Below are positions 938 through 63,065 of a stretch of 64,000 nucleotides of DNA, piece by piece. The notes beneath the pieces were generated by a model that searched no databases, was not told the origin of the DNA, and saw only the letters and a program-made list of their open reading frames with translations. Source of the stretch: Escherichia coli (GTDB lineage: Bacteria > Pseudomonadota > Gammaproteobacteria > Enterobacterales > Enterobacteriaceae); assembly GCF_009931435.1 (NCBI RefSeq), contig NZ_CP043414.1; one strand, given 5' to 3'. The translations under genes and the position numbers were made by a program. The first letter of the stretch is position 1. Each line of letters starts with the position of its first letter.

Positions 938-2077
938 ATGAGCGCGGGAAGCCCAAAATTCACCGTTCGCCGCATTGCGGCTTTGTCACTGGTTTCGCTA
1001 TGGCTGGCAGGCTGTTCTGACACTTCAAATCCACCGGCACCGGTCAGCTCCGTTAATGGCAATGCGTCTGCAAACACCAATTCTGGTATGTTGATTACGC
1101 CGCCGCCGAAAATGGGGACGACGTCTACAACGCAGCAACCGCAAATTCAGCCGGTACAGCAGCCACAAATTCAATCTGCACAACAACCGCAAATCCAGCC
1201 GGTGCAGCCAGTTGCTCAGCCGCCGGTACAGATGGAAAACGGACGCATCGTCTACAACCGTCAGTATGGGAACATTCCGAAAGGCAGTTATAGCGGCAGT
1301 ACATACACCGTGAAAAAAGGCGACACACTTTTCTATATCGCCTGGATTACTGGCAATGATTTCCGTGACCTTGCTCAGCGCAACAATATTCAGGCACCAT
1401 ACGCGCTGAATGTAGGTCAGACCTTACAGGTGGGTAATGCTTCCGGTACGCCAATCACTGGTGGAAATGCCATTACCCAGGCCGATGCAGCAGAGCAAGG
1501 AGTTGTGATCAAGCCTGCACAAAATTCCACCGTTGCTGTTGCGTCGCAACCGACAATTACGTATTCTGAGTCTTCGGGTGAACAGAGTGCTAACAAAATG
1601 TTGCCGAACAACAAGCCAACTGGGACCACGGTCACAGCGCCTGTAACGGTACCAACAGCAAGCACAACCGAGCCGACTGTCAGCAGTACATCAACCAGTG
1701 CGCCTATCTCCACCTGGCGCTGGCCGACTGAGGGCAAAGTGATCGAAACCTTTGGTGCTTCTGAGGGGGGTAACAAGGGGATTGATATCGCAGGCAGCAA
1801 AGGACAGGCAATTATCGCGACCGCAGATGGCCGCGTTGTTTATGCCGGTAACGCGCTGCGCGGCTACGGTAATCTGATTATCATCAAACATAATGATGAT
1901 TACCTGAGTGCCTACGCCCATAACGACACAATGCTGGTCCGGGAACAACAAGAAGTGAAGGCGGGGCAAAAAATAGCGACTATGGGTAGCACCGGAACCA
2001 GTTCAACACGCTTGCATTTTGAAATTCGTTACAAGGGGAAATCCGTAAACCCGCTGCGCTATTTGCCGCAGCGATAA
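938..2077 (+). CDS. nlpD: murein hydrolase activator lipoprotein NlpD (LysM + M23/LytM domains)
   Basis: 379-aa ORF with lipoprotein signal (LAGCS), Q/P-rich repeat region, C-terminal M23 peptidase-like domain; lies upstream of rpoS. Confidence 0.95.
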
Positions 2078-2139
2078 ATCGGCGGAACCAGGCTTTTGCT
2101 TGAATGTTCCGTCAAGGGATCACGGGTAGGAGCCACCTT

Positions 2140-3132
2140 ATGAGTCAGAATACGCTGAAAGTTCATGATTTAAATGAAGATGCGGAATTTGATGAGAACG
2201 GAGTTGAGGTTTTTGACGAAAAGGCCTTAGTAGAAGAGGAACCCAGTGATAACGATTTGGCCTAAGAGGAACTGTTATCGCAAGGGGCCACACAGCGTGT
2301 GTTGGACGCGACTCAGCTTTACCTTGGTGAGATTGGTTATTCACCACTGTTAACGGCCGAAGAAGAAGTTTATTTTGCGCGTCGCGCACTGCGAGGAGAT
2401 GTTGCCTCCCGCCGCCGGATGATCGAGAGTAACTTGCGTCTGGTGGTAAAAATTGCCCGCCGTTATGGCAATCGTGGTCTGGCTTTGCTGGATCTTATCG
2501 AAGAGGGCAACCTGGGGCTGATCCGCGCGGTAGAGAAGTTTGACCCGGAACGTGGTTTCCGCTTCTCAACATACGCAACCTGGTGGATTCGCCAGACGAT
2601 CGAACGGGCGATTATGAACCAAACCCGTACTATTCGTTTGCCGATTCACATCGTAAAGGAGCTGAACGTTTACCTGCGAACCGCACGTGAGTTGTCCCAT
2701 AAGCTGGACCACGAACCAAGTGCGGAAGAGATCGCAGAGCAGCTGGATAAGCCAGTTGATGACGTCAGCCGTATGCTTCGTCTTAACGAGCGCATTACCT
2801 CGGTAGACACCCCGCTGGGTGGAGATTCCGAAAAAGCGTTGCTGGACATCCTGGCCGATGAAAAAGAAAACGGCCCGGAAGATACCACGCAAGATGACGA
2901 TATGAAACAAAGCATCGTCAAATGGCTGTTCGAACTGAACGCCAAACAGCGTGAAGTGCTGGCACGTCGATTCGGTTTGCTGGGGTACGAAGCGGCAACA
3001 CTGGAAGATGTAGGTCGTGAAATTGGCCTCACCCGTGAACGTGTTCGCCAGATTCAGGTTGAAGGCCTGCGCCGTTTGCGCGAAATCCTGCAAACGCAGG
3101 GGCTGAATATCGAAGCGCTGTTCCGCGAATAA
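2140..3132 (+). pseudogene. rpoS: RNA polymerase sigma factor RpoS reading frame interrupted by an in-frame ochre codon (TAA at 2263-2265, codon 42); an in-frame GTG at 2299 opens a 277-codon ORF covering sigma regions 1.2-4
   Basis: ATG 2140 translates [41 protein letters not shown] then TAA; the ORF track only opens at 2299 in the same frame; the rest matches RpoS (…[15 protein letters not shown]…). Confidence 0.85.
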
Positions 3133-3148
3133 GTAAGCATCTGTCAGA

Positions 3149-3181
3149 AAGGCCAGTCTCTTATGAGGCTGGCCTTTTTCT
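3149..3181 (+). terminator. rho-independent terminator downstream of rpoS
   Basis: Inverted repeat aaaggccagtctc/ttatgaggctggccttt followed by a T-run. Confidence 0.7.
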
Positions 3182-3252
3182 TTTGTATGGGGAGTTGGTG
3201 TGTTTCGTCGCCTGGATAAGACACGTCAGCGTCCCATCCGGCAATCAACATC

Positions 3253-3660
3253 CTATTTGCTCATCATCTTGCGCACCAGCTGCATAAACAGCTCCTGCTC
3301 TTCTCCACTCAAACGCCCCAAAAATTCCTCATCCACACTGTCGCCAATCGGTATCGCCGCAGCAAGTACCTTTTCTCCTTCGGCAGTCAGCCAGACAAAG
3401 CGTCGCCGCTTATCAGCGGTGTCATGTTCACGTCTGACTAAGCCACGATTTTCCATTCTTGCCAACATTTCTGCCAGCGTTGCTTTGGTGCTGACGGCTG
3501 CTTCCATCAGTGCCACCTGTTCGATACCAGGTTTATCAGCAATGGCGCGCATCACCGCGTACTGTGGTTTGGTCAGGTCAGGTAACTCGTGCTGCCAGCG
3601 GGCCGTATGCTGCTGAAAAAGCTGTCGTAACTGATGGAACGCTTTATTTCGTAACGCCAT
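3253..3660 (-). CDS. hosA: MarR/SlyA-family transcriptional regulator (HosA-like)
   Basis: 135-aa ORF with winged-helix MarR-like sequence; sits divergently upstream of the UbiX/UbiD decarboxylase genes, the arrangement described for hosA in pathogenic E. coli. Confidence 0.65.
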   Translation of the reverse strand: MALRNKAFHQLRQLFQQHTARWQHELPDLTKPQYAVMRAIADKPGIEQVALMEAAVSTKATLAEMLARMENRGLVRREHDTADKRRRFVWLTAEGEKVLAAAIPIGDSVDEEFLGRLSGEEQELFMQLVRKMMSK

Positions 3661-4400: not shown

Positions 4401-5827
4401 TGGCATTTGATGATTTACGCAGCTTCTTACAGGCGCTTGATGACCACGGCCAGTTACTGAAAATCAGCGAAGAGGTGAACGCGGAACCGGATCTGGCAGC
4501 CGCTGCCAACGCCACCGGGCGTATCGGCGACGGCGCGCCCGCGCTGTGGTTTGATAATATTCGCGGCTTTATCGATGCCCGCGTTGCAATGAACACCATC
4601 GGTTCCTGGCAGAACCACGCAATTTCTCTCGGTCTGCCGCCAAACACCCCGGTTAAAAAACAGATTGATGAGTTTATCCGCCGCTGGGATAACTTCCCGA
4701 TAGCCCCGGAGCGCCGTGCGAATCCTGCCTGGGCGCAGAACACCGTCGATGGCGACGAGATCAATTTGTTCAATATCCTGCCGCTGTTTCGTTTAAACGA
4801 TGGCGATGGCGGTTTCTATCTCGACAAAGCGTGCGTGGTTTCCCGCGATCCGCTCGATCCGGATAACTTCGGCAAGCAGAACGTCGGCATCTATCGCATG
4901 GAAGTGAAGGGTAAGCGTAAGCTCGGCCTGCAACCGGTGCCGATGCACGATATCGCCCTGCATCTGCATAAAGCGGAAGAACGTGGTGAAGATTTGCCAA
5001 TTGCCATCACGCTGGGTAACGATCCGATCATCACCCTGATGGGCGCCACCCCGCTGAAATATGATCAATCGGAGTACGAAATGGCGGGCGCGCTACGCGA
5101 AAGCCCGTACCCGATCGCCACCGCCCCGCTGACCGGTTTTGATGTGCCGTGGGGTTCAGAAGTGATCCTCGAAGGGGTTATCGAAAGCCGCAAACGTGAA
5201 ATCGAAGGGCCGTTCGGTGAGTTTACCGGGCACTACTCCGGTGGGCGCAACATGACCGTAGTGCGCATCGATAAAGTCTCTTACCGCACCAAACCGATTT
5301 TTGAATCGCTCTATCTCGGCATGCCGTGGACCGAAATCGACTACCTGATGGGGCCTGCCACCTGCGTGCCGCTTTACCAGCAGTTGAAAGCCGAGTTCCC
5401 GGAAGTGCAGGCGGTGAACGCTATGTACACCCACGGCCTGCTGGCGATTATCTCCACCAAAAAACGCTATGGCGGCTTTGCCCGCGCAGTGGGCCTGCGT
5501 GCGATGACCACGCCGCACGGTCTGGGTTATGTGAAGATGGTGATTATGGTCGATGAAGACGTTGACCCGTTCAACCTGCCGCAGGTGATGTGGGCGCTCT
5601 CTTCGAAAGTGAACCCGGCAGGGGATCTGGTGCAGTTGCCGAATATGTCAGTACTGGAACTCGACCCTGGCTCAAGCCCGGCGGGGATCACCGACAAGCT
5701 GATTATCGACGCCACTACGCCTGTCGCCCCGGACAACCGTGGTCACTACAGCCAGCCGGTGGTGGACTTACCGGAAACCAAAGCCTGGGCTGAAAAACTG
5801 ACCGCTATGCTGGCCGCACGTAAATAA
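4400..5827 (+). CDS. ecdC: UbiD-family reversible hydroxyarylic-acid decarboxylase (subunit C)
   Basis: 475-aa ORF; UbiD-like length and sequence; directly follows the UbiX-like gene. Confidence 0.75.
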   Translation: MAFDDLRSFLQALDDHGQLLKISEEVNAEPDLAAAANATGRIGDGAPALWFDNIRGFIDARVAMNTIGSWQNHAISLGLPPNTPVKKQIDEFIRRWDNFPIAPERRANPAWAQNTVDGDEINLFNILPLFRLNDGDGGFYLDKACVVSRDPLDPDNFGKQNVGIYRMEVKGKRKLGLQPVPMHDIALHLHKAEERGEDLPIAITLGNDPIITLMGATPLKYDQSEYEMAGALRESPYPIATAPLTGFDVPWGSEVILEGVIESRKREIEGPFGEFTGHYSGGRNMTVVRIDKVSYRTKPIFESLYLGMPWTEIDYLMGPATCVPLYQQLKAEFPEVQAVNAMYTHGLLAIISTKKRYGGFARAVGLRAMTTPHGLGYVKMVIMVDEDVDPFNLPQVMWALSSKVNPAGDLVQLPNMSVLELDPGSSPAGITDKLIIDATTPVAPDNRGHYSQPVVDLPETKAWAEKLTAMLAARK

Positions 5828-12162: not shown

Positions 12163-12819
12163 CTACTTTATTTTATAAAATGACAGCCGCCCGCTTTTCG
12201 GCGATCCGGTATCAATATAAATCTGGTTTGCGAACGTCTGGATGTTATCAAACATCATATGTCCGAAGATAAAGCAGTCGGCGCCGTTTATTTCCTGTAA
12301 CTCGCCTTTGAGCGATTTCAGTACGCGATCAACAGGCCAGAGTAATTCTCTCTCCGCTATTTCTTTGCCAAACTGATATTCAGCACCAGGATAATCAGCA
12401 TGTGCAATGACATATTTTATAATGTCGTTGGTAATTTCAATAATATGCGGAAGGTGATGGAATTTCAGCAACAGATCTATTGCCTCTTGTTGCTCTGAAT
12501 CATTTAAATCGAAAAACCAGTCACCACCGCTGGCAAGCCACATATTTCCATCGCCAGTTTCGAATGCCTCAAGCGCCATCGCTTCATGGTTGCCTTTAAC
12601 GGAGATAAACCAGGGCTGGTTTAACAGGCGTAGCACGTTAAGACTCTCCGGCCCACGATCAATATTATCGCCGACAGAAATAAGTAAGTCGGTTTCAGGA
12701 CAAAAAGATAATTGGTGCAGGCGGGATTGCAATAATTGATAATCTCCATGAATGTCACCTACCACCCAGATATGGCGATAATGAGTGGTTTCAATTTTAC
12801 GATAACGAATATCTGGCAT
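12163..12819 (-). CDS. pphB: serine/threonine protein phosphatase 2
   Basis: Metallophosphatase motifs GDIHGD, GDNIDRG, GNHE; start taken at MPDIRYRK, not the longer ORF-track start. Confidence 0.85.
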   Translation of the reverse strand: MPDIRYRKIETTHYRHIWVVGDIHGDYQLLQSRLHQLSFCPETDLLISVGDNIDRGPESLNVLRLLNQPWFISVKGNHEAMALEAFETGDGNMWLASGGDWFFDLNDSEQQEAIDLLLKFHHLPHIIEITNDIIKYVIAHADYPGAEYQFGKEIAERELLWPVDRVLKSLKGELQEINGADCFIFGHMMFDNIQTFANQIYIDTGSPKSGRLSFYKIK

Positions 12820-12841
12820 TGATCGCGCTCCGTAAAAAGAA

Positions 12842-13696
12842 TTATTCCGGCTTATGAAACAGAATGGTGTTAATCTCGACATCAGTGATTGCGCCAGCTG
12901 CTTCTGCTTTATGTAACCAGTATAGCGCTTTGTCTTTATCCACACCGTTCTCATCAATGCCCCAGGCGTAAATGCGGCCTAAGGATATTTGGGCATGAGG
13001 TAAATCTTGTGCGGCAGCTTTTTCAAACCAGTATTTAGCCTGTTTAATATCAGCGGGTACACCATCGCCCGTTAAAAAGAGCGTACCATAATTATACTGA
13101 CCAATTTTGTCGCCTTTTTCTGCGGCAAACTTAAGATATGTCGCAGCCTGGAGATAATTCTTTTCCTCGGCTGCGAGGAGCCCTAAATTAGCATGTGCAA
13201 TGGGGTTTCCCTTTTGCGCCGCTTTAACGAGCCAGGATTTTGCTTTATCGATATCATGGAACTTCTCTGGACCAAACTGATAGATATTGGCACAGTTTAT
13301 CTGTGCCTGAAGATTCCCCTGTCTGGCTGATTTCTCATACCAGTGAATGGCATTCTGGTAATCCGGCGGTGTGTCTTCATCTCCCTGATGATATAAAAGC
13401 CCGACATAAAATTGCGCAATGTCATCTCCCTGACTGGCTGCCAGATTAAACCAGTAAAATGCTTTATCGCGGTTTTTAACCCCCGTTACCCCTTCCTGGT
13501 AAACAATTCCCAATCCTTTTTGCGCAGATTTATCGCCGCCTTGTGCCCTTGCGATGATATTTTTCAGGTTTTCCTGTTTGTTTTTAGAATAACGTTGTTC
13601 AGCCTGGATAAGATCATCAAGCGAGGGTTCTTTGGCACAATAACCTGTTAGAGGAAAATGCAAAATTAGTAGAGTAAATAAAATTAACTTTTTCAT
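12842..13696 (-). CDS. secreted Sel1-like repeat (SLR/TPR-like) protein
   Basis: Signal peptide MKKLILFTLLILHFPLTGYCA followed by about seven repeats of the Sel1 pattern (A-x-Y-x-L-G-x-x-Y-x-x-G…D-x-x-K-A-x-x-W…A-A-x-Q-G); no K-12 gene lies between mutS and pphB in my recollection. Confidence 0.75.
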   Translation of the reverse strand: MKKLILFTLLILHFPLTGYCAKEPSLDDLIQAEQRYSKNKQENLKNIIARAQGGDKSAQKGLGIVYQEGVTGVKNRDKAFYWFNLAASQGDDIAQFYVGLLYHQGDEDTPPDYQNAIHWYEKSARQGNLQAQINCANIYQFGPEKFHDIDKAKSWLVKAAQKGNPIAHANLGLLAAEEKNYLQAATYLKFAAEKGDKIGQYNYGTLFLTGDGVPADIKQAKYWFEKAAAQDLPHAQISLGRIYAWGIDENGVDKDKALYWLHKAEAAGAITDVEINTILFHKPE

Positions 13697-13770
13697 ACAT
13701 TCCATGAATTAATTGTTGAGTCCTGATTTTAATTATACTCCATCTGTTATTGAGCCAATAATAATTAATA

Positions 13771-13797
13771 ATCCCCGATGGGAAGGCCATCGGGGAT
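13771..13797 (-). terminator. hairpin downstream of mutS (terminator/attenuator)
   Basis: Perfect 11-bp stem atccccgatgg/ccatcggggat followed on the minus strand by an AT-rich tract. Confidence 0.5.
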
Positions 13798-13804
13798 TAT
13801 GCCA

Positions 13805-30889: not shown

Positions 30890-30913
30890 TTTTTCAGTAA
30901 GGAATTCAGGGAA

Positions 30914-31687
30914 TTGAAAATCAGAACAGGGATGTGCGCTTTTTTATTTTGCTTAGTGCTTCCTGCGCAGGCTACCAGCTTTACCGAATATCTGCCAATG
31001 AGTGACAGCGAATACGCGCAAAAGCGGGCGCTGAAACCTCTCCTGACTATGCCTTATTATACCGAGCAAACCTGGCATTTTAGAAAAGTGGGCGTTGCTG
31101 GCGTGACGCTTGAGAAGATGCCAAATGAAGAGGATTACTGGCAATTAACTGCTAAAGACCGCGCCGGTAAATCCTGGAAGGTGCCTGTGGGTATGCTGGC
31201 AAATATGGCGGGCAAAGGGCAACTCTATCGCGCCGATCTGGATCGTAACGGCATTCAGGATCTGGTTATCTGGTTACCAAGTGCTGGTAATGGTCTGGCT
31301 CCTTATGCACATTTAATCCTTATGACGTTCACGCGCGATGGTCGTCCCTGTGTCTTTGAACCCTGGGGATTCTACACCGCAAGCAAAACTGGCGTAGATG
31401 ATTTGCTGGATTTGCAAGGCAATGGCCACACACAATTGCTGGATATGCAGTTTAATTCTGGTTACTGGATAACCAGTCTGTATCAGGTAAAAGACGCCAA
31501 ATGGCAACGTGTTCACGGCTGGTTTGGCAAGTTAAGCTATCCCGCGCTCACGCGTTTTACTTATACCCCCAACCGTAAACTCGTCCTCAAACCCATTGCC
31601 GGGCGTGACCCGCAAACGGAAGATTTAGCGCTGACGCAGCGTTGTTTGAGAACAGGGGATATGCTTGAAGGGGTGAATCAGAACTGA
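30914..31687 (+). CDS. hypothetical secreted protein with two DxDxNG-type motifs
   Basis: 257-aa ORF; N-terminal signal peptide (…CAFLFCLVLPAQATSF); motifs ADLDRNGIQDLV and DDLLDLQGNGHTQLL resemble FG-GAP/calcium-binding loops; no K-12 gene between hycI and ascB. Confidence 0.55.
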   Translation: MKIRTGMCAFLFCLVLPAQATSFTEYLPMSDSEYAQKRALKPLLTMPYYTEQTWHFRKVGVAGVTLEKMPNEEDYWQLTAKDRAGKSWKVPVGMLANMAGKGQLYRADLDRNGIQDLVIWLPSAGNGLAPYAHLILMTFTRDGRPCVFEPWGFYTASKTGVDDLLDLQGNGHTQLLDMQFNSGYWITSLYQVKDAKWQRVHGWFGKLSYPALTRFTYTPNRKLVLKPIAGRDPQTEDLALTQRCLRTGDMLEGVNQN

Positions 31688-31849
31688 CTTTTTGCAGAGT
31701 GGGTATGAGGATTTTGGGGGAGAATTATATCGCGCGCAAGTGTTTACATATTGTGAACTTGGATTTGGTGAGCTATAGTTTCTGAACACATAAGGATAGA
31801 ACTCGCAGATGTGGCTGTTTACTTACTATAAGGAAGTTAAAACTTAAAA

Positions 31850-32161
31850 ATGCACATCATTTCGAAAGCGCCATTTGAAGAGTCTGCGCGCAAATATCCT
31901 AACGACGCTCTGGCTCTACACTCATTGTATCGGGTTATTAAGGAAACGGATTTTTCTACGCCAGAAGAAATGCGAACGGCGTTTCCCAACCTCGACAATT
32001 TTAAATATCGTAACAAATGGTACGTTCTGGATGTAGGCGGGAACAATCTTAGGGTTATTGCCTACATAAACTTTGTTAATAAGCGGTTCTTTGTGAAGCA
32101 CATAACGAATCATGCCGAGTATGACAAACTGACACGTTACTACAGAGAGAACAGAGAATGA
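31850..32161 (+). CDS. higB: type II toxin, HigB-family mRNA interferase (RelE/ParE superfamily)
   Basis: 103-aa ORF; region FPNLDNFKYRNKWYVLDVGGNNLRVIAY aligns with the E. coli HigB segment FPSLDNFKYLDKHYVFNVGGNELRVVAM; toxin-first order with overlapping ATGA junction. Confidence 0.8.
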   Translation: MHIISKAPFEESARKYPNDALALHSLYRVIKETDFSTPEEMRTAFPNLDNFKYRNKWYVLDVGGNNLRVIAYINFVNKRFFVKHITNHAEYDKLTRYYRENRE

Positions 32162-32577
32162 CTGCTAATGCTGCACGCGCTGTTAAAGCAACAAGAGAAC
32201 TGGTCAATGCAGTCCCCTTTCTGGGAGGCAGTGACTCAGAAGATGATTATCGTGAAGCACTGGAACTGGTCGAATATTTGATTGAAGAAGATGACACCAA
32301 TCCACTTATCGACTTTCTGGCGAGCCGCATTGCAGAGTATGAAAACAACCACGAAAAGTTTGCAGAGTTCGACAAAGCCGTTGCTGCAATGCCGGTTGGC
32401 GTGGCGTTACTTCGCACGTTGATTGATCAACATAATCTGACCTATGCGGATTTGAAGAACGAAATCGGCTCTAAATCCCTGGTCAGTCAGATTTTGTCTG
32501 GACAAAGATCCCTGACGATATCCCACATTAAGGCACTTTCAGCCCGATTTGGCGTTAAGCCGGAATGGTTTCTTTGA
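32158..32577 (+). CDS. higA: type II antitoxin HigA (XRE-family HTH)
   Basis: 139-aa ORF; C-terminal HTH (…IGSKSLVSQILSGQRSLTISHIKALSARFGV…) closely resembles K-12 HigA; start overlaps higB stop. Confidence 0.8.
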   Translation: MTANAARAVKATRELVNAVPFLGGSDSEDDYREALELVEYLIEEDDTNPLIDFLASRIAEYENNHEKFAEFDKAVAAMPVGVALLRTLIDQHNLTYADLKNEIGSKSLVSQILSGQRSLTISHIKALSARFGVKPEWFL

Positions 32578-56870: not shown

Positions 56871-56947
56871 GCATCCGTAGCTCAGCTGGATAGAGTACTC
56901 GGCTACGAACCGAGCGGTCGGAGGTTCGAATCCTCCCGGATGCACCA
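56871..56947 (+). tRNA. argV: tRNA-Arg (anticodon ACG), copy 1
   Basis: 77-nt gcatccgtagctcagctggatagagtactcggctACGaaccgagcggtcggaggttcgaatcctcccggatgcacca. Confidence 0.95.
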
Positions 56948-57146
56948 TATTCTACGAAATCTTCAGCAATGAAGGTGTCGAAGAGGTGGCGGTACTAACC
57001 GCAAGCACCAGGGAGGATAACGTTGCTTTAGCAACGGCCCGAAGGGCGAGCCGTAAGGCGAGTAATCCTCCCGGATGCACCATCTCTTACTTGATACGGC
57101 TTTAGTAGCGGTATCAAAAAATCTGCAGTAAAGTAAGTTTCCCGAT

Positions 57147-61248: not shown

Positions 61249-62361
61249 TTACCTGTCAGTCACCCGATATTCCACGCTATGTGCTTCATCAGGTTGAGGA
61301 ACTTCCAGCCTTGAGGCCATCCGCATCACGACCGCTTCAGGAACGGCATACTCGCGCCTGGCATTTTGCTGCTTCCATTGCGCCCACGGTACTTCCAGAT
61401 AAACGATTTTTACTCGTGCACCGTAAGCCGTAAACAGACTGATGAGCTGGCTACGCAACTGGCGGGTAATGTTCGTTGCATTCCAGATGAACGGCTTCTT
61501 CTGGCGTAAAAAAACGCGCGCTTCTTCTTTTGCCTGTTGCACAATACGCCCGGTGGCGGTTTTGTCGTCCGGACTGGCATTGATTCGCCGCCGCATATCA
61601 TCAAGGCTGATAACGTTCACTCTCTGGCACTGTTCACTGATAAAGCGATCTTTGCCCATACCCGGTAAACCACACAGCAAAATAACCTCAAAAGATTCAG
61701 CCTCCCAGGGAACAAAATCAGGAGAACTTTGTTCATGGGTCAGGTAATGCCAGCGTGCGGAATCCGAAGCGAATGAACGCACTTTTCCCCAGCATTGTTG
61801 CTCCTGGCAAAATAGCTTGAACAGATCGATGCGTTCCAGCATTGATTGCTGATCATGACAATGGCGACCAAGCAGATCGGCACGAGCAAGCAAAGCGAGC
61901 AGACGCGTGTCGATACGCATTGCAGCCGTGAGCAGCAAACGCTCCGGTTCCGGACGTTCCAGTAACCATAGCGGTAACCCATGCAGACGCACCAGTGCAA
62001 CAATTTGCTCGCGTAGCACGAACGGTGTCGGGATATCGCGCCATAAAATTTGTCGGGCCGTCAATTCACCCCGACGAGCATGACCAGGGGACTGAATACG
62101 TCCGTTTTCCTGCACGGTAGTACTGCGCTTTTCAACGTCATGCAATAACGCCGCCGCCCATAAAATTTCCTGCTGCTGAGCGGGGAGTTGCTGAAACTCA
62201 GCCATCGCAACGAGTGCGTTCAGCACCATTTCAGTATGCACACCAACGTCGCCTTCACCATGATGCTCCGGGTCTTGCGGCGTGTTATGCATATCCTCAA
62301 CCCAGCTAAAACGCTGGCGTAGCGTCGACCAGCGTTTGTCGTCGGTAAGTTGCCAAATCAT
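61249..62361 (-). CDS. HD-domain phosphoesterase fused to a P-loop polynucleotide-kinase-like domain (HD-Pnk-type end-healing enzyme)
   Basis: 370-aa ORF; N-terminal HD signature (…[12 protein letters not shown]… and …AALLHDVEK…); C-terminal P-loop …[15 protein letters not shown]… followed by …[10 protein letters not shown]…; start overlaps the ligase stop (ATGA). Absent from the K-12 luxS-emrB junction. Confidence 0.7.
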
Positions 62362-63065
62362 GACTGTTCTCCATAAGCGAACTCATGGGCCATCCGCGCC
62401 CGTCGCCAGTGGCGTTTCCAGTGCTCGGTGGTTTTGACATGATTTTTGCGTACATACTTGAAGACGTTATGCGAAAAGTCAGCGACGGAAAACGCATCAC
62501 TATTCCGGCTGACAATGCCTTCCAGCGTACAGGGTTGCCCGGTTTGCGTATCCCAGGGATCGAACGCGCCGCGCGCATTGGTCAGCGCCAGAAAATCACG
62601 TTGCCAGCTTTTTTCATCATTCCCCGGCTGCGGGCCGGAGATTTCGGGAACGCAGGGGAAATCAAACAGAGCGGCGTAAAACTGCACCTCTTCCCAGCTC
62701 AGCCACATATCCTGGCAGCGAACGGCAAACAGATAAAAATCCTGCTCCAGGGCGCGATATTCAATCGAATGAACGGCATAAAGATTTTCACCAAACAACT
62801 CCAGATCGCCGAGATCGTTTTTCAGCGATTGCCAGCGTTGGCGAATTTTATAGGTCCATGCCGATTCCGTTGGCGCGGCATGGGAACGGGCAAACACGCC
62901 GAAGCGATTAAGACAGTTATTTTCGCCGTCGAGTTTTTCAGTATGTACCAACTGCGAAATTGCCTGCATATCTTGCCAGTAACTGGCGTTAATGCGGTCA
63001 TCGCTGGTGGTGCCAGGGGAGAAGGGATAATGCCAGGTTCTCCCGTATTTACGTTGGATAATCAT
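62358..63065 (-). CDS. minimal ATP-dependent polynucleotide (RNA/DNA) ligase, nucleotidyltransferase domain only
   Basis: 235-aa ORF with covalent nucleotidyltransferase motifs: motif [10 protein letters not shown] (KxDG lysine), motif [12 protein letters not shown], motif [10 protein letters not shown], motif V FKYVRK. Confidence 0.7.

Follow-up and report, generated by a model that had tools for sequence, protein, structure and literature searches.

Mutations of rpoS that abolish the stationary phase sigma factor σS have been described from chemostats, from stab cultures and from strain collections (PMC3240573, PMC3484664, PMC3074542). For the K-12 amber-33 allele rpoSAm, PMC2763269, citing Subbarayan & Sarkar 2004, describes restart of translation at GUG54 and a partly active Δ1-53 σS, and the region responsible is presented there as a secondary translation initiation region that depends on a stop codon (Subbarayan & Sarkar 2004; Rajkumari & Gowrishankar 2002; Gowrishankar et al. 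2003; all as given in PMC2763269). Further alleles come from the ECOR collection. We reconstructed these published alleles on the sequence and compared them with the immunoblot notes in Table 1 of PMC3074542. Truncated RpoS was seen in ECOR54, in which a frameshift ends at a TGA that by our reconstruction lies 49 nt before GUG54 (PMC3074542), and K-12 amber-33 likewise gives a truncated protein, the stop being reconstructed at 60 nt before GUG54 (PMC2763269). No detectable protein was recorded for ECOR51 and ECOR20 (L11*), with reconstructed distances of 82 and 126 nt, respectively, nor for ECOR70, in which ribosomes pass over the restart site in a shifted frame (PMC3074542). The entry closest to the present case is ECOR59, listed as 'G124T … E42 amber' and devoid of RpoS on immunoblots (Ferenci et al. 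2011; PMC3074542, Table 1); this strain also carries a frameshift after S186 (PMC3074542).

The stretch of DNA analyzed here, hereafter the window, spans 64 kb and carries surE/pcm, rpoS, MarR-family and hydroxyarylic-acid decarboxylase genes, the ygb/otn operon, mutS, hyp/hyc genes, asc, nor, srl, recA, alaS, csrA, gshA and luxS. Positions 2140-3132 are rpoS, whose product σS belongs to group 2 of the sigma-70 family, by synteny, protein identity and Pfam regions. The gene order pcm-nlpD-rpoS is annotated likewise in relatives; the translated frame is 99.7% identical over 330 aa to WP_000081550.1, the RpoS of strain N96 and the common E. coli RpoS with Glu33, agreeing at 329 of 330 codons with a single stop in the alignment; and the product matches PF00140, PF04542, PF04539 and PF04545 (regions 1.2, 2, 3 and 4), all with E ≤ 1e-11. 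The features on which the argument turns are the following.

172-795: pcm, upstream of nlpD.
938/983-2077: nlpD, directly before rpoS.
2127-2132, + strand: native rpoS Shine-Dalgarno sequence TAGGAG, unchanged; predicted anti-SD pairing of -6.5 kcal/mol, spacing of about 8.
2140-3132, + strand: rpoS frame of 330 codons plus stop, from the translation, interrupted at codon 42.
2140-2265, + strand: N-terminal stub of 41 codons ending in TAA, from the translation.
2263-2265, + strand: ochre TAA at codon 42, resulting from G to T at 2263 (rpoS nt 124, GAA to TAA, E42*).
2282-2287, + strand: SD-like AAGGGG of the internal restart site (STIR), a predicted anti-SD duplex with a putative role here.
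2299-3132, + strand: 277-codon ORF from GTG (codon 54), taken from the ORF list; predicted Δ1-53 σS.
2302, + strand: TTG55, the neighboring alternative start beside GTG54.
3146-3179, + strand: intrinsic terminator past rpoS, a 15-pair stem followed by a T-run.
3256-3660, opposite strand to rpoS: MarR-family gene, the next gene after rpoS.

Read from the ATG at 2140, the frame is open to the TAA at 3130-3132 except at codon 42, where TAA (2263-2265) breaks the uninterrupted 330 codons that mark an intact rpoS; judged from its sequence, the locus is functionally a pseudogene for full-length σS. The 640 bases 5' of the ATG (1501-2139) differ from those of relatives by only one to four substitutions. 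Since rpoS is followed by a terminator and the next gene lies on the other strand, the premature stop cannot exert polarity on downstream genes.

In a base-by-base comparison, codon 42 is GAA in the three closest relatives (MFDS1022581, 2013C-4282 and WL297) and in two more distant E. coli strains, and the GTDB species representatives E. albertii and Escherichia sp. MOD1-EC7003 have G at the site. The original prediction, that an ochre had replaced a GAA codon for Glu, thus holds in the translation and in the relatives examined. When positions 2040-3200 were searched by megablast against 5,426 complete E. coli genomes, rpoS was found in 5,415 of these, 18 of them at ≥99% identity. The G to T change at 2263 is the sole non-synonymous difference from the relatives in rpoS, the remaining differences (1-16 per strain) all being synonymous. 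A single transversion without secondary decay in the gene argues for a recent mutation. A pseudogene fixed in the lineage would share its lesion with relatives and show secondary decay; here, by contrast, the nearest relatives, which are 98.4-99.1% identical over 12-14 kb, all carry G124 and an intact rpoS. On the rpoS haplotype of the window, the stop was found in only one other assembly, which is identical in sequence. Clone-mates were also sought through the MutS and YgbM proteins of the window, each of which occurs in hundreds of assembly blocks; the loci obtained in this way (97.6-99.1% identical) all had an intact rpoS, and no clone-mate with the stop was among them. Because the observation is one defined base change in a known gene rather than a pattern in statistics, the question of chance does not arise.

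Taken together, we regard it as highly probable that the window carries a real and recent E42* mutation, that the strain makes no full-length σS and probably a low level of Δ1-53 σS, and that its general stress response is attenuated to near-null. In the proposed course of events, the G to T change at nt 124 (2263) converted the GAA codon of Glu42 into an ochre and rendered synthesis of full-length σS impossible. Ribosomes would stop at UAA42, leaving an acidic peptide of 41 residues, and some of them would probably re-initiate at AAGGGG and GUG54, 33 nt further on, to yield a low amount of a 277-residue σS that lacks residues 1-53 and keeps regions 1.2-4. The expected phenotype would be a strongly attenuated to near-null general stress response, with low catalase HPII, low glycogen and sensitivity to acid and oxidative stress, accompanied by better nutrient scavenging. 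We infer the occurrence of the restart, the amount of product, the phenotype and the timing of the mutation. The earlier expectation of a strain that is RpoS-null or attenuated lies in the right range.

The sequence of the internal restart site is intact in the window. The first in-frame start past the stop is the GTG at 2299 (codon 54), which TTG55 adjoins and which lies 33 nt from the stop. That this GTG opens a 277-codon ORF retaining regions 1.2-4, as had been proposed, is borne out by the ORF list and by Pfam, in which Sigma70_r1_2, r2, r3 and r4 are all kept. The computed mass of the 277-residue product is 32.0 kDa, vs 38.0 kDa for the full-length protein. The next in-frame ATG, at codon 94, has no SD, and its product would be without region 1.2. 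GTG54 is preceded at about 10-11 nt by AAGGGG, with a predicted anti-SD pairing of -6.8 kcal/mol. This motif carries a lineage-specific peculiarity: rpoS A144 and G147 (window positions 2283 and 2286) replace the G and A of K-12-like haplotypes, both changes being synonymous and located inside the restart SD. They turn AGGGAG into AAGGGG and shift the predicted pairing only from the -7.4 kcal/mol of the K-12 haplotype to -6.8 kcal/mol. RNA accessibility predictions, the result of which depends on the context chosen, were similar for the SD and GUG54 in the window and K-12 haplotypes, with GUG54 mostly paired in both; a paired GUG54, as modeled, would fit a site that requires a nearby terminating ribosome.

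In its sequence, the locus has the makeup of an rpoSAm-type allele: an in-frame stop before codon 54, an SD-preceded GTG54 ORF that runs to the natural stop, and a permissive stop distance. Compared with the published alleles, the 33 nt in the window would fall on the permissive side, a pattern that fits termination-reinitiation and is drawn from five alleles in different backgrounds. Restart past an early stop with a partly active truncated RpoS as its result, to which the original prediction had also appealed, agrees with what PMC2763269 reports for amber-33 and with the truncated RpoS of ECOR54 (PMC3074542).

The alternative that survives best accepts the mutation as real and holds that no useful truncated σS is made, so that the strain behaves like an rpoS deletion. 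We consider such a complete null possible, at odds clearly below even. It draws on ECOR59, the one published strain with the same stop, which has no RpoS on immunoblots (PMC3074542), a case confounded by the second lesion: the frameshift after S186 would itself destroy the restart product, which makes the RpoS-negative immunoblot uninformative on restart. The early stops of ECOR20 (L11*) and ECOR51, which leave no detectable protein (PMC3074542), point in the same direction, as does the sequence around the start itself. In the predicted fold most of GUG54 is paired, and its SD is shared, at better spacing, by a competing out-of-frame GTG at 2297, which may lower the restart yield; on these predictions the yield could be very low. 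Moreover, stops that could be rescued by restart are no commoner in public assemblies (see below), which leaves the restart product without visible advantage. Against a complete null, stops located 49 and 60 nt before GUG54 give truncated protein in ECOR54 (PMC3074542) and in amber-33 (PMC2763269), and the stop of the window is closer still, at 33 nt, with both the SD and GTG54 intact. A mutation with probable low-level restart is the preferred reading.

E42* (G124T) is not new: it has already been published, and it arises repeatedly. Exactly one complete RefSeq genome, that of AR_0019 (NZ_CP024889.1), matches the 41-mer centered on the T. Its rpoS is annotated as a pseudogene with an 'internal stop' and carries G124T as well, in a haplotype separated from that of the window by 17 synonymous differences. 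Because gene callers had called N-terminal stubs of disrupted rpoS genes, the exact 41-residue stub could be looked up as well, and 128 indexed blocks of public assemblies contain it. All ten stub-bearing contigs examined have TAA through G124T; they divide among no fewer than six clearly distinct rpoS haplotypes and show three arrangements of the genes downstream. With intact RpoS (E33) in 102,853 blocks, the frequency of E42* is on the order of 0.1%. In AR_0019, the gene for hydroxyarylic-acid decarboxylase subunit C just 3' of rpoS is frameshifted, and in a contig with the rpoS haplotype of AR_0019 the subunit C gene is split into calls of 131 and 330 aa; these sequences suggest a small clone carrying both lesions.

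Early rpoS nonsense alleles had been called a classic polymorphism, and both the literature and the assemblies agree. An exact match to the 277-aa product occurs in 5,106 indexed blocks of public assemblies, and the ten such loci examined showed ten different early lesions, among them L11*, L30*, E32*, amber 33, E43*, Q48*, duplications of 7 and 8 bp, and deletions. Within codons 2-53, 22 codons are one substitution away from a stop, by 25 single-base paths, 12 of which are G>T changes at the many Glu and Gly codons of the acidic N-terminus; the whole of rpoS offers 117 single-base nonsense paths. Codon 42 is not a special site.

We also considered whether stops just 5' of GUG54, such as E42*, are recurrently selected 'dimmer' alleles, in which a low level of Δ1-53 σS replaces the full-length protein. 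If true, the product of such alleles would differ from full-length σS in promoter preference and possibly in proteolytic control, and the alleles would provide an intermediate setting between stress resistance and nutrition that outlasts true nulls in nature. Rescuable stops should then outnumber equivalent G>T Glu-to-stop alleles just 3' of GUG54. The exact stubs of rescuable stops were found in 270 (E34*), 128 (E42*), 195 (E43*) and 96 (E44*) blocks, those of non-rescuable stops in 191 (E64*), 106 (E74*) and 114 (E76*). These block counts from public assemblies, a crude unit in which short stubs are possibly under-called, reveal no enrichment of rescuable over non-rescuable early stops. The counts lend the dimmer idea no support, and we hold it to be very improbable.

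A sequencing or assembly error, with G as the true base at 2263 and an intact rpoS, is less probable again. A single-base call at 2263 needs reads for its verification, and the original prediction had named a sequencing error as a possibility. That caveat now appears unlikely to apply, as a separate assembly of raw reads has the same T. The Logan contig from run ERR3469340 has the same rpoS as the window and is 100% identical to it over all 6,265 overlapping bases, the T included. With sizes of 40.7 kb for this contig and 64 kb for the window, the two are different assemblies, and the shared T makes an assembly error very unlikely; the two may share reads, so that the comparison excludes an assembly error and not an artefact at the level of reads or culture. 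In an alignment to the 64-kb window of 63 translated genes annotated in N96 and 2020CK-00188, the nearest relatives, all 62 genes other than rpoS, mutS included, proved full-length, without gap or stop; rpoS alone has a stop. The 62 intact genes argue against a poor assembly, a decaying genome and a mutS mutator. A general problem of assembly quality and a Shigella-like decay were both rejected on this basis, the compared regions also being free of IS elements. An error at 2263 is further disfavored by the occurrence of the same change in many unrelated assemblies and by the fact that rpoS is known for genuine mutations of this kind.

Bypass of the stop by an ochre suppressor tRNA or by read-through, with full-length σS still made, can be set aside as the least credible of the readings. 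Suppressors exist in some laboratory strains, but nothing in the window speaks for one: the plausible tRNA genes found in a tRNA scan of the 64 kb are one Ser(gct) and four Arg(acg), with no ochre-reading anticodon and no ochre suppressor among them. In E. coli, moreover, UAA leaks less than the other stops and is not known to be recoded, and natural isolates seldom carry ochre suppressors, which come at a cost. The tRNA genes form a Ser-Arg-Arg-Arg-Arg cluster 3' of csrA; an antisense tRNA-Arg(tcg) called by ARAGORN at 56891-56962 (- strand) overlaps the genuine tRNA-Arg(acg) at 56871-56947 and is probably spurious.

The window also shows some further features. Its identity is about 96.3-96.8% with mainstream E. 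coli and about 98.6-99.1% with a handful of strains (best complete-genome matches 98.6-98.9% over 25 kb), which points to a rarely sequenced, deep-branching Escherichia coli-like lineage. Between pphB and mutS, a 1,015-bp segment (12789-13803) that is absent from N96, the nearest complete genome, encodes a 287-aa Sel1/TPR-repeat protein (12842-13705, - strand) with a signal-like N-terminus. Beside it, pphB is only 90.8% identical to that of N96, with its neighbors at 99-100%, and from the sequence the segment has the look of a patch that arose by recombination within the mutS-rpoS region, which is polymorphic. Past hycI, a 955-bp segment (30892-31846) takes the place of 161 bp in N96; it holds a 257-aa ORF (30914-31687, + strand) that has a signal-like N-terminus, is matched by neither NCBIfam nor PADLOC, and lies just 5' of a higB/higA toxin-antitoxin pair (31850-32574). 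Finally, a two-gene insert lies 3' of luxS (61252-63065, - strand), and the same pair is found between luxS and emrB in 2020CK-00188. One gene encodes a 370-aa protein with similarity to HD-domain and Pnkp-like kinase proteins, below NCBIfam cut-offs, and the other a protein of 235 aa whose counterpart in 2020CK-00188 carries the RefSeq name 'RNA ligase family'. The insert gave no match to a PADLOC defense system and, by these similarities, looks like an RNA-repair pair.

As to the origin of the mutation, the usual source of such an allele would be selection against σS under nutrient limitation, most often during laboratory storage. Within 7 days, stab cultures are overtaken by rpoS mutants (PMC3240573); among the 96 strains of a collection handled with care, only 2 were without RpoS, both having been mutated in the laboratory (PMC3484664); and the authors of a study covering 60,472 genomes expected rpoS to show many deleterious variants at low frequency for reasons of laboratory storage (PMC10401003). 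Selection on poor carbon sources also gives rpoS nulls (PMC2700278). From this literature, laboratory storage is the default suspect; the sequence of the window does not decide between host, environment, and freezer or stab. A possible rpoS lesion of a different kind was encountered in the type strain of Escherichia albertii, NBRC 107761 = DSM 17582 (NZ_BBMY01000068.1, reverse-complement coordinates 5110-5733), where an exact in-frame tandem duplication of 312 bp repeats codons 61-164 (regions 1.2-2) and predicts a product of 434 residues; it is either a further rpoS lesion in a culture-collection strain or an artefact of assembly or storage.

For those who use the strain in work on stress, virulence, biofilm, persistence or carbon use, an RpoS-deficient or strongly attenuated phenotype is to be expected, and users should ask if the stock that was sequenced is still true to the original isolate. 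Annotators should enter the locus as rpoS carrying an internal stop, and should not split it into a 277-aa sigma factor and a 41-aa hypothetical protein. The relevance is at the level of the strain: one independent occurrence of a published G124T is added to the well-documented instability of rpoS.

Set beside the described systems, the allele most resembles K-12 rpoSAm in its architecture, sharing an early nonsense codon upstream of GUG54, the same 277-residue ORF (the protein is identical from residue 54) and a purine-rich SD at the same position. The two differ in that the window has an ochre at codon 42, 33 nt from GUG54, whereas rpoSAm has an amber at codon 33, 60 nt away. Likewise, the restart SD is AAGGGG in the window and AGGGAG in K-12, and the in-frame TTG40 is usable in the amber-33 allele but lies upstream of the stop in the window. 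Moreover, amber suppressors such as supE cannot rescue the ochre. In terms of the lesion itself, the closest counterparts are the alleles of ECOR59 and AR_0019, with the same nucleotide change (GAA to TAA) at codon 42 in an E33 background. ECOR59, however, has T163C, T339C and other changes that set its haplotype apart from that of the window, as well as the frameshift after S186, which the window does not have. As the haplotypes of AR_0019 and ECOR59 differ from that of the window, the origins are independent. In the nature of the change, finally, the allele resembles those selected in stationary phase, chemostats and stabs (GASP and the SPANC trade-off; PMC3240573, PMC3484664, PMC2700278), with which it has in common a simple mutation that reduces σS in an otherwise intact genome region, and the large mutational target provided by the 117 nonsense paths of rpoS.
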